A stretch of DNA of 64,000 nucleotides, taken from Escherichia coli (GTDB taxonomy: Bacteria > Pseudomonadota > Gammaproteobacteria > Enterobacterales > Enterobacteriaceae). The stretch lies in the NCBI RefSeq assembly GCF_030013595.1, contig NZ_CP122768.1; one strand, given 5' to 3'. Numbering within the stretch: the stretch's first letter is position 1; every line of letters begins with the position of its first letter. The notes beneath the pieces were generated by a model that saw only the letters and a list, made by a program, of their open reading frames with translations, made no database searches and was not told the DNA's origin. Shown piece by piece: positions 16,325-17,693 of this stretch. The position numbers were made by a program, and so were the translations under genes.

Positions 16325-16545
16325 GCTGCACCTCCGAGATGCTTCATGTTTTTTCCGGAGCGAAAGGTTATAAGCGGCATACTGACGCGGTAATTACGGC
16401 CCAGCGGTTCACAAATCACCTTCTGACATTCACGGTCAACCAGGCTAACACGTAGAACATGCCCTGCAGGTGTGGTGTACCACTGACCCGGACGAGGACA
16501 ACGGAAAGTCTGATTGGTAAACCGTTTGAAAATATTCCGGATCAT
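16321..16545 (-). CDS. Small hypothetical protein
   Basis: 74-aa ORF with ATGA overlaps to both neighbours (translational coupling). Confidence 0.4.
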   Translation of the reverse strand: MIRNIFKRFTNQTFRCPRPGQWYTTPAGHVLRVSLVDRECQKVICEPLGRNYRVSMPLITFRSGKNMKHLGGAA

Positions 16546-17693
16546 TTGCGCCCCCTTACCTCTGAAGGGTTCAGCGACAAATTTATGAGGCAGGCCAGTG
16601 CCGAAGCATCATTAATATAGTCATACAAGCTAACAGCCAGCGGAGATTCGGCTTTTGCCAACATAGGATAAAGCTGCTGCAGCCAGACCTGATGAATTGA
16701 TGAAATGTAGGAACAGAGAACGCTGGCGTTATGTGCAACGTCGCTCGGTACAGCGGGCTTTGAAAGCTGTTTCTCCATCTGGTTAAAGGCATTGATGTAT
16801 GCCTCTTTGAACTGGGCAGCACGTTTACCCGTGAAACCCATAGCAAGAAACGCAAAGCCGTCGCGGGTTATTTGATAGCAAGGTAGTTTGCGGCCTGTGC
16901 AATCGGTGTAATCACTCACCGAAAAATTGCGGGCAGTGAATGATGCGGAACATTCAAGCGTGCGGATCTTTTTCAGTACATCGTCATGACGTTTGGAGAA
17001 GAAGTTGGCAACAGCCAGGGATGAAGTAACAGCCTGACCATCAACGATGGCAATTTCAGGTTGAGTGAGGGTTGGGATCGTAGCCATGATGGCAGCCTCT
17101 TTGGTGATTTTTAATAACTCACCACCAAGGCTTTCCACGACCTTATTGGTGGTGAGACGTACAGGGGTGGAAATACCGGTCACCAAAGAACCCGGCCCAA
17201 CCGAAGTTGGCCCTGCACGCCCCACCATAATTTGGGCGTAATGCTGCTCATGACACAAAAAAACCGCAAGAGCGCGGTTGTGCGCTTTGGTGAATTCCGG
17301 GTTTCCACGCCCGGCACCCGCTTTATAAGGTGCCTGAACAGTGTAACGTCCCGGAATGGCAGAATCAATGTGCTGGTGGTCCTTCACACTCAACAAAATC
17401 ACGCCTGAATTTCCACAAAGGACTAAAGCATTCATGCGGGTAGTCTTTGCGAAGATAGATAACGCGCTGTGTTTCTGGCTCCCAACGAATAACATGAACA
17501 TAAAGTCCTCTTCCGTCACGAAACCAGCGGTTAAGTTCCTGCACAACTCGCCCCCCACAGTCAGGTAAAGTTCTCTGTGGTTACTTACAGCCAGGTGATT
17601 TGGTAATCTGCATTCATGCCGTAACAACAGGTGTGCAGCGACACTGACCACCAGCTGTTGCGACAAACGGTTATTTGCCGTTAAACTGTTCAT
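16542..17693 (-). CDS. Rha-family regulatory protein with extra N-terminal domain
   Basis: 383-aa ORF; residues from about 203 (MATIPTLTQPEIAIVDGQAV...) look Rha-like; N-terminal ~200 aa unknown but continuously open; alternative start ATG at 17087. Confidence 0.6.
   Translation of the reverse strand: MNSLTANNRLSQQLVVSVAAHLLLRHECRLPNHLAVSNHRELYLTVGGELCRNLTAGFVTEEDFMFMLFVGSQKHSALSIFAKTTRMNALVLCGNSGVILLSVKDHQHIDSAIPGRYTVQAPYKAGAGRGNPEFTKAHNRALAVFLCHEQHYAQIMVGRAGPTSVGPGSLVTGISTPVRLTTNKVVESLGGELLKITKEAAIMATIPTLTQPEIAIVDGQAVTSSLAVANFFSKRHDDVLKKIRTLECSASFTARNFSVSDYTDCTGRKLPCYQITRDGFAFLAMGFTGKRAAQFKEAYINAFNQMEKQLSKPAVPSDVAHNASVLCSYISSIHQVWLQQLYPMLAKAESPLAVSLYDYINDASALACLINLSLNPSEVRGRK

Follow-up and report, generated by a model that had tools for sequence, protein, structure and literature searches.

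This analysis concerns a long open reading frame (ORF) of 383 codons in a 64,000-nucleotide stretch of Escherichia coli DNA (contig NZ_CP122768.1, assembly GCF_030013595.1; hereafter the window), and in particular the 202 codons that precede its Rha-family regulatory segment. The ORF lies on the minus strand in the early region of a lambdoid prophage, within the pR early operon, between cII and the replication genes (Table 1). Its ATG (17693-17691) overlaps the TGA (17692-17690) of an upstream 183-residue gene, a cII-like gene with a Pfam Phage_CP76 match that is named ymfL by the Prokaryotic Genome Annotation Pipeline (PGAP), giving an ATGA at 17693-17690, and its own stop overlaps the ATG of the next ORF in the same way (16545-16542). 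The cro-like gene, the cII-like gene, the long ORF, orf74 and the replication gene are all on the minus strand, each overlapping the next end to start. An earlier reading of the letters alone (the original prediction) had described the same open frame with its ATGA-overlapped start, naming no strand, and the ORF listing confirms it. The DNA of the locus is 100% identical to prophages of E. coli CE10 and further strains and shares 98% identity with phage mEp460. Of 5426 complete E. coli genomes, 3004 give at least a partial match to a 2-kb query spanning the locus, and 523 contain most of that query.

The distal part of the frame encodes a Rha-family regulator or antirepressor. Phage_pRha (PF09669) matches with 106-107 bits against a gathering threshold of 29.9, at residues 223-308 of the long form (E 1.4e-30) and residues 21-106 of a nested 181-residue short form (E 5e-31), and the short form also matches transcriptional-regulator and anti-repressor families in PHROG. 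The short form begins at M203 (ATG 17087-17085), where a Rha-like segment had been predicted, and its start is a conserved sequence, GAGGCUGCCAUCAUGGCUAC, which is also the start of P4 kil. The 202 codons upstream of M203 are open without interruption, and this is not chance, because with about 4.5% stop codons per position only about 1e-4 of random stretches of that length stay open. The original prediction had recognised no motif in this N-terminal part; Pfam Phage_ASH (PF10554) in fact matches residues 117-213 (E 1.7e-15, 57.8 bits against a gathering threshold of 26). A Pfam scan of residues 1-116 alone gave no match, and no relative of solved structure was found for the whole 383-residue protein.

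The Phage_ASH match coincides with two RNA genes, and residues ~121-183 of the long frame overlie an IsrK-like leader RNA and a C4 RNA, each identified by its Rfam model. The IsrK-like leader contains the elements a1 (GUGGAAA, 17308-17302) and b1 (UCACCAAAG, 17293-17285) and ends in an intrinsic terminator, with a stem at 17279-17262 followed by a U run; the c4-a1b1 Rfam model scored 22.6 bits on this leader, under its gathering threshold of 46.7. A promoter-like site, near-invariant across diverged relatives, precedes the leader's first base by 7 nt and is the putative counterpart of P4 PLE and Gifsy-1 PisrK, with the transcription start inferred from the start of the Rfam model and from work on Gifsy-1 (PMC4825925). 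The C4 RNA presents a loop b' (UCUUUGGUGA, 17189-17180) and an element a' (UUUCCAC, 17173-17167). Loop b' is complementary both to b1 in the leader and to a second site, b2 (UCACCAAAGA, 17107-17098), while a' is complementary both to a1 and to a2 (GUGGAAA, 17138-17132). The b2 site overlaps the Shine-Dalgarno (SD) sequence AAGAGG (17101-17096), which lies 8 nt upstream of the M203 ATG.

Table 1. Features of the locus, followed by neighbouring genes and other features of the window (coordinates are window positions).
Feature	Position	Strand	Basis or remark
Long eta-like ORF, 383 codons	16542-17693	minus	ORF listing; PGAP protein WP_001087308.1 in strain CE10
Nested short ORF, 181-residue Rha-family regulator/antirepressor from M203	16542-17087	minus	Pfam Phage_pRha, PHROG
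C4 target on mRNA, a2/b2	17096-17138	minus	Complementarity read from sequence
C4/CI-type antisense RNA	17145-17232	minus	Rfam RF01695, 83.6 bits (gathering 45), model positions 1-87, full length
IsrK/seqA-like leader RNA	17257-17333	minus	Rfam RF01394, 67 bits (gathering 50)
Promoter-like site: TTGATT (17368-17363), 17-nt spacer, TACACT (17345-17340)	17340-17368	minus	Read from sequence
DUF4222 gene, 59 residues	17365-17544	minus	GTG start after a GGGGGG run; +1 frame relative to the long frame
Spacer from cII/YmfL stop to DUF4222 start, roughly 150 nt	17545-17689	minus	Only the long frame open
cII-like gene (YmfL)	17690-18241	minus	
cro-like gene	18234-18494	minus	
cI-like repressor	18592-19284	plus	
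74-residue ORF (orf74)	16321-16545	minus	
Replication gene, HTH_36/DnaD_N-like	15506-16324	minus	Intact 272-codon ORF
Possible OOP-like antisense RNA	17658-17765	plus	Opposite the early genes, within the 3' end of the cII-like gene
Rfam matches elsewhere (SymR RNA, tRNA genes)	54917-54993; 28445-28764; 8538-8609	minus; plus; minus	

Computed duplexes with the C4 core have energies of -38.6 kcal/mol for the IsrK-like leader and -35.9 kcal/mol for the cognate a2/b2 target. The C4 and isrK pair is present in all ten relatives tested and, by the Rfam models, in P4, and the a1/b1, b'/a' and a2/b2 elements co-vary across 11 loci. For a broader comparison, viral contigs were scanned for the conserved start GAGGCTGCCAYYATGGCTAC, which yielded 120 loci; once these were clustered, so that the loci kept share less than 90% identity over 330 nt of upstream sequence, and the window and P4 were added, there were 52 representatives. 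These contain 40 distinct C4 cores. Duplexes between a C4 core and its cognate target average -37.6 kcal/mol, as against -25.7 kcal/mol for non-cognate pairs, and the cognate target is the best or tied for the best in 37 of the 52. Such covariation indicates that the RNA pairing logic is under selection, in a heteroimmunity pattern like that of P1 versus P7.

Upstream of the promoter-like site the long frame crosses a further gene in another frame. The DUF4222 gene matches Pfam PF13973 (E 9.5e-14, 51.1 bits against a gathering threshold of 27) and PHROG 1343 (E 1e-36), is annotated by PGAP in strain A33 as WP_001341559.1, and has its TGA stop within the -35 hexamer of the promoter-like site; residues ~51-110 of the long frame are simply its out-of-frame reading. 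An unrecognised gene of the early operon, as suggested in the original prediction, does exist here, but it is read in a frame other than the one proposed. Substitutions were counted after aligning the window to four relatives that are 74-89% identical. Over the DUF4222 segment, the proportions of synonymous (pS) and nonsynonymous (pN) differences are 0.39-0.78 and 0.04-0.10 in the DUF4222 frame (pN/pS ~0.1), and 0.04-0.15 and 0.15-0.27 in the long frame (pN/pS at least 1). In the isrK, C4 and a2/b2 segments no frame has protein-type constraint. Because these counts show no constraint in the long frame, the peptide of codons ~51-202 is not conserved as a protein.

The spacer between the cII-like gene and DUF4222 gives no clear coding sign either: compared with ST64B it has a pS of 0.40 and a pN of 0.18 over 29 differences, and a second frame behaves similarly. 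Residues 1-50 were considered as a conserved small protein, a candidate that is weak, the DNA of phage LLS being 72.6% identical and the amino acids about 40% identical by eye. Phage LLS carries the spacer and DUF4222 as a unit (1204-1547) directly after a cII-type gene and before the O gene, without an isrK-C4-Rha cassette. Its record annotates a 108-residue ORF, gp43, which begins with DNA homologous to the spacer and is an out-of-frame reading over most of the LLS DUF4222 gene (1371-1547).

The lack of constraint bears directly on whether the ORF encodes a genuine two-domain protein, in which residues 1-200 would fold as a functional 'Ash' domain working with the Rha domain, the domain fusion that had been proposed. 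Pfam treats Phage_ASH as a protein family, PHROG 821 covers the N-terminal part, and published work on Shiga toxin (Stx) phages likewise deals with 'Rha/Ash domain proteins' (PMC8951638). We nevertheless regard this explanation as highly improbable. The stretch matched by Phage_ASH coincides with two RNA genes whose scores clear their Rfam thresholds by a wide margin, the amino-acid changes are unconstrained, the part before it reads DUF4222 out of frame, the search for a solved-structure relative was negative, and the same leader is joined to unrelated cargo of 63 to 397 residues, P4 Kil among them. Because the family also matches P4 eta over its seqA-CI RNA region, the Phage_ASH 'domain' is, judged from these sequences, a translation of the seqA/CI RNA region. 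Stx phage papers list the 'Ash domain' as being of unknown function, and reading it as translated seqA/CI RNA removes a false protein-domain lead.

The same combination of features occurs at the eta/kil locus of the satellite phage P4. P4 eta (ORF199, 8168-8767) matches Phage_ASH at residues 22-146 with 82.4 bits, contains a match to the isrK model (seqA) and one to the C4 model (CI RNA), and starts with an ATGA on the stop of ORF88 (P4 8767-8764). BLASTP aligns the window protein with P4 eta at E 2e-10 and places the kil start, 'EAAIMAT', on M203, and the ST64B record notes the likeness of its own homolog to 'P4 ORF199'. In P4, according to the passages of PMC10111431 that summarise Forti et al. 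(1999), the transcript from the internal constitutive promoter is terminated via CI/seqA interactions and Kil is a truncated product, whereas translation of full-length Eta occurs only on transcripts of the upstream late promoter, in coupling to the preceding gene, and prevents termination. The window locus shares with P4 eta/kil a long ORF that is ATGA-started on an upstream stop and runs in frame through an internal promoter, a seqA-like RNA, a CI-like RNA and the target, nested with a short ORF at the same GAGGCUGCCAUCAUGGCUAC, and both long ORFs match Phage_ASH. It differs in its cargo (a 181-residue Rha-family protein, whereas that of P4 is the 65-residue Kil), in its setting (a lambdoid prophage with cII upstream in the pR operon, in place of an alpA/vis homolog under PLL) and in the isrK-C4 gap (24 nt as against 107 nt in P4). 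Unlike that of P4, the long frame of the window also crosses the DUF4222 gene out of frame. One scheme for detecting P4 satellites lists PF10554 as the epsilon profile (PMC8628076), and one paper equates P4 epsilon with 'Ash', though epsilon falls in a different Pfam family, PF25738 'Derepression', and does not match PF10554 (P4 is our locus L015, 7888-8767).

The frame is maintained well beyond the window and P4. Over the stretch that begins 45 nt before the isrK start and runs to the ATG, the ATG frame is free of stops in 48 of the 52 representatives, compared with nine and none for the other two frames, and stops over that stretch total 14 in the ATG frame as against 115 and 257 in the others. 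In all 48 open cases the isrK start and the ATG are a multiple of three apart (240, 243, 246, 282, 285, 288 or 327 nt), whereas the four closed cases have 242, 265 or 329 nt. Two poorly conserved spacers vary in triplets. That from the isrK terminator to C4 (21, 24, 63, 69 or 108 nt, with 36 distinct sequences) has no stop in the ATG frame and 10 and 11 in the other frames, and that from the C4 end to the ATG (51, 54 or 57 nt, with 38 distinct sequences) likewise has none, as against 22 and 65; the exception is one 22/53 pair, attributed to imprecise model boundaries. The ATGA arrangement recurs as well: at least 24 representatives have one, formed by their first in-frame ATG and the stop codon of an ORF upstream. 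Those ORFs are 65 to 599 codons long and, in tandem arrays, include the preceding antirepressor gene. Of the three closed-frame types, two (L020 and the 933W/F004 type, L072) stand alone, more than 540 nt from any upstream same-strand ORF, and in the third (L090, first module of L121) the upstream ORF ends 63-64 nt before isrK. Among close relatives, all 24 distinct full-length haplotypes of the window type keep the frame intact, although with only 32 distinct single-nucleotide polymorphisms, for which about 1.2 nonsense changes are expected and none was observed, this sample has no power to show a deficit of nonsense variants.

These comparisons have to be set against the view that the long ORF is an annotation artefact, in which only DUF4222 and the 181-residue Rha protein are made and the 202 codons are open through RNA conservation and lack of stops. 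Consistent with that view are the pN/pS of at least 1 in the long frame, its overlap with a real gene in another frame, and a DUF4222 +1 frame that is open even where this is not needed. Existing annotation fits that view too. RefSeq/PGAP annotates identical DNA (window 16300-18300) as one 383-residue Rha-family protein in strain CE10 (L001), but as DUF4222 and a 297-residue Rha-family protein starting at M87 (17435) in strain A33 (L004). Neither record annotates an isrK or C4 RNA, whereas the curated F004 record has both as noncoding RNAs and a coding sequence (CDS) that starts after them; the same DNA is thus annotated in two ways, and its two RNA genes are usually omitted. Even so, we consider an artefact unlikely. 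The variable spacers change only in triplets and gain no stop in the ATG frame, unlike the other frames, the ATGA coupling recurs with many different upstream genes, and an artefact would leave 600 nt untranslated within a run of early genes that otherwise overlap. In P4, moreover, the homologous eta frame is described as translated and functional in passages of PMC10111431 that cite Forti (1999). On sequence grounds the long frame is probably no annotation accident, and translation of the whole frame from its ATGA-coupled start is plausible and, in our estimate, fairly likely. The claim that the ATGA overlap supports translation of the full 383 residues can be kept to that extent, on the strength of recurrent coupling, P4 eta and the in-phase open frame, but it does not extend to the peptide itself, which is unconstrained.

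We favour, and think probable, an interpretation of the locus as the lambdoid equivalent of P4 eta/kil with features of P1 immI, in which C4 silences Rha expressed from the internal promoter and ribosomes coupled to cII escape this silencing. In a lysogen only the internal promoter would fire. C4 would be released from the transcript and would pair with a2/b2, masking the SD sequence of M203; this pairing would block Rha translation and keep the antirepressor off, and the blocked RNA would be exposed to Rho termination, as in P1 and P4. Once pR is derepressed, ribosomes finishing cII would start again at the overlapping ATG and carry translation of the long frame through DUF4222, the IsrK-like region, C4 and a2/b2. 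Translation would then cover the transcript, so that neither C4 pairing nor Rho termination would occur, and an N-terminally extended Rha, together with the downstream replication genes, would be expressed whatever the level of C4. For the first 202 codons, what would matter is the act of translation and not the encoded peptide.

Several observations weigh against this interpretation. First, the signals that would start the internal transcript and translation of the long frame are modest: the ATG at 17693 has a weak SD sequence (GGAG, 10 nt upstream), and the promoter-like site has 8 of 12 consensus positions, which is below the threshold of the consensus scan and was not called; it stands as a candidate on its conservation and on where the Rfam model begins. 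Second, the 52 representatives share ancestry and their RNA genes are conserved as nucleotides, and the stop-free signal is in part inherited and not the product of independent selection; taken by length class, the in-phase signal reaches only about p = 0.04 (six of nine classes in phase). Third, the DUF4222 +1 frame is also free of stops in L111, where the long frame does not cross DUF4222, and is nearly open in LLS, with one late stop and no RNA module, and openness across DUF4222 may be intrinsic to the gene family. The distant L058 has five stops in that frame, few diverged homologs having been compared; a search for DUF4222 genes in other settings yielded near-identical copies only. Finally, both the Rho dependence and the processing of C4 from a longer transcript by RNase P are taken from the P1 and P4 literature.

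The second system on which our interpretation draws is the immI operon of P1 and P7, reportedly organised as c4-icd-ant (Citron and Schuster, 1990). The window can be aligned directly to part of the P1 c4 region (H107/H108). The two arrangements share a C4 RNA with a1/b1 upstream of it and a2/b2 downstream at a ribosome binding site, an antirepressor-type gene thereafter, and a specificity set by loop sequences that co-vary with their targets. Unlike immI, the window locus has no icd-like intermediate gene, a2/b2 lying directly on the SD sequence of Rha, and its downstream protein is of the Rha family and not P1 Ant; the module also lies within an operon, where a coupled ORF spans it.

A third relative is the isrK-orf45-anrP-isrJ locus of Gifsy-1, whose authors describe IsrK as a structural homolog of P4 SeqA (PMC4825925). 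There, orf45, which begins at transcript nucleotide 107, is translated, and translation of anrP requires it; an orf45-anrP fusion is noted in S. dysenteriae (PMC4825925). The window has in common with Gifsy-1 an IsrK homolog with a partial terminator, a C4-like processed RNA (STnc1160 in Gifsy-1), an antirepressor-like gene and an AUG at the orf45 position: the in-frame AUG of M156 (17228-17226), within C4, is equivalent in position to the first AUG of orf45. In Gifsy-1, however, orf45 ends in an AUGA overlap with anrP in another frame, whereas the window frames are continuous, and the Gifsy-1 module has its own promoter and is not embedded after cII. A separate orf45-type ORF with an AUGA overlap was not found at the window locus, where the frame runs from the C4 AUG (17228) for 141 nt without a stop into M203.

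These likenesses raise the possibility of a Gifsy-1-type control, in which translation of internal-promoter transcripts would start at M156 and, the frame being continuous, give a 228-residue Rha isoform in place of a separate 45-residue peptide, and the IsrK-like small RNA would activate in trans. The isrK homolog scores above its Rfam threshold, 10 of 11 loci have a conserved in-frame AUG at C4 positions 5-7, and the requirement for orf45 translation and the S. dysenteriae fusion in the Gifsy-1 work both fit. But no SD sequence precedes M156, the defining orf45-anrP AUGA overlap is absent, and such control leaves the open frame upstream of the internal promoter and the ATGA coupling unexplained. 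We hold it to be possible though doubtful; it is compatible with escape from C4 by coupled ribosomes, and the two could coexist.

The original prediction had also proposed that relatives be compared for two separate genes that a read-through mutation has joined in this genome. One relative, Salmonella phage 118970_sal3, is annotated with two CDS (108 and 288 residues) across the region. Its split, however, is a 1-nt insertion relative to the near-identical ST64B and breaks the DUF4222 frame as well as the long one, all 24 distinct full-length haplotypes are intact, and the frame is continuous in 48 of 52 diverged relatives, which makes read-through extremely improbable. The insertion in 118970_sal3 (L007) lies at about 1196-1198, the two fragments are annotated as 'putative antirepressor' and 'transcriptional regulator', and it could be a sequencing error or mark a pseudogene.

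In kind, the system is already known from P4 eta/kil and P1 immI, and passages of PMC10111431 note CI/seqA homologs in Bro-network genes of satellites. There, matches to the C4 and isrK models of Rfam fall within Bro-network genes, which include the Phage_ASH and Phage_pRha families, of phage-inducible chromosomal islands and P4-like satellites, and these matches are read by analogy with P4 eta (PMC10111431). Term searches of passages of the same paper found no frame-conservation statistics. The window case, in comparison, belongs to the early operon of a lambdoid prophage, and what is added here is the lambdoid pR-operon context, the out-of-frame overlap with DUF4222, and comparative statistics for frame maintenance and coupling.

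More generally, we lean slightly towards the view that C4/IsrK modules inside operons are as a rule spanned by a 'pass-through' ORF that is coupled to any upstream gene and whose peptide is irrelevant, its translation allowing transcripts from an upstream promoter to disregard the antisense RNA; in the lambdoid type of the window this ORF would also overprint DUF4222 out of frame. If true, this would extend a mechanism shown only for the satellite P4 to many lambdoid early operons, including those of Stx-type phages, and would mean that the 'Ash domain' is no protein domain in the usual sense. It would account for the presence of an RNA-controlled antirepressor cassette between cII and the replication genes with no block to early transcription, and would offer a simple system for testing how translation, antisense RNA and Rho interact when prophages are induced, Stx phages included.

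Some relatives carry the module more than once. Tandem isrK-C4-antirepressor arrays occur in L082 (four copies), L121 (three), L046 and L097 (two each), and also in L024, L130 and L096, with each long frame ATGA-coupled to the stop of the preceding antirepressor. In some contigs a single ORF runs through two consecutive modules (for example, 397 residues in L024). In phage SfV (L008), a2 (UUGCCGU, about 10 nt past the C4 end) is an imperfect match to the a' of its own C4 (UUGGCGU), whereas a1 matches; the SfV site may be recombinant or a partly mismatched target.

Three further observations concern the neighbourhood of the locus and the rest of the window. A possible OOP-like antisense RNA on the opposite strand consists of a promoter-like TTGCGA (17658-17663), an 18-nt spacer and TAAACT (17682-17687), with a downstream hairpin in which GACGCCCG (17726-17733) pairs with CGGGCGTC (17748-17755), followed by ACTCTTTTCT. 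The region has no Rfam family match; its hairpin is invariant in the window, LLS and ST64B, and its folding beats shuffled sequences (z = -3.4). The RefSeq record of CE10 flags the replication gene (L001 3477-4295) as a pseudogene with an 'internal stop', though the ORF in the window is intact. Elsewhere in the window, the Rfam scan at gathering thresholds identified a SymR antitoxin RNA, three tandem tRNA genes of equal score and one further tRNA.

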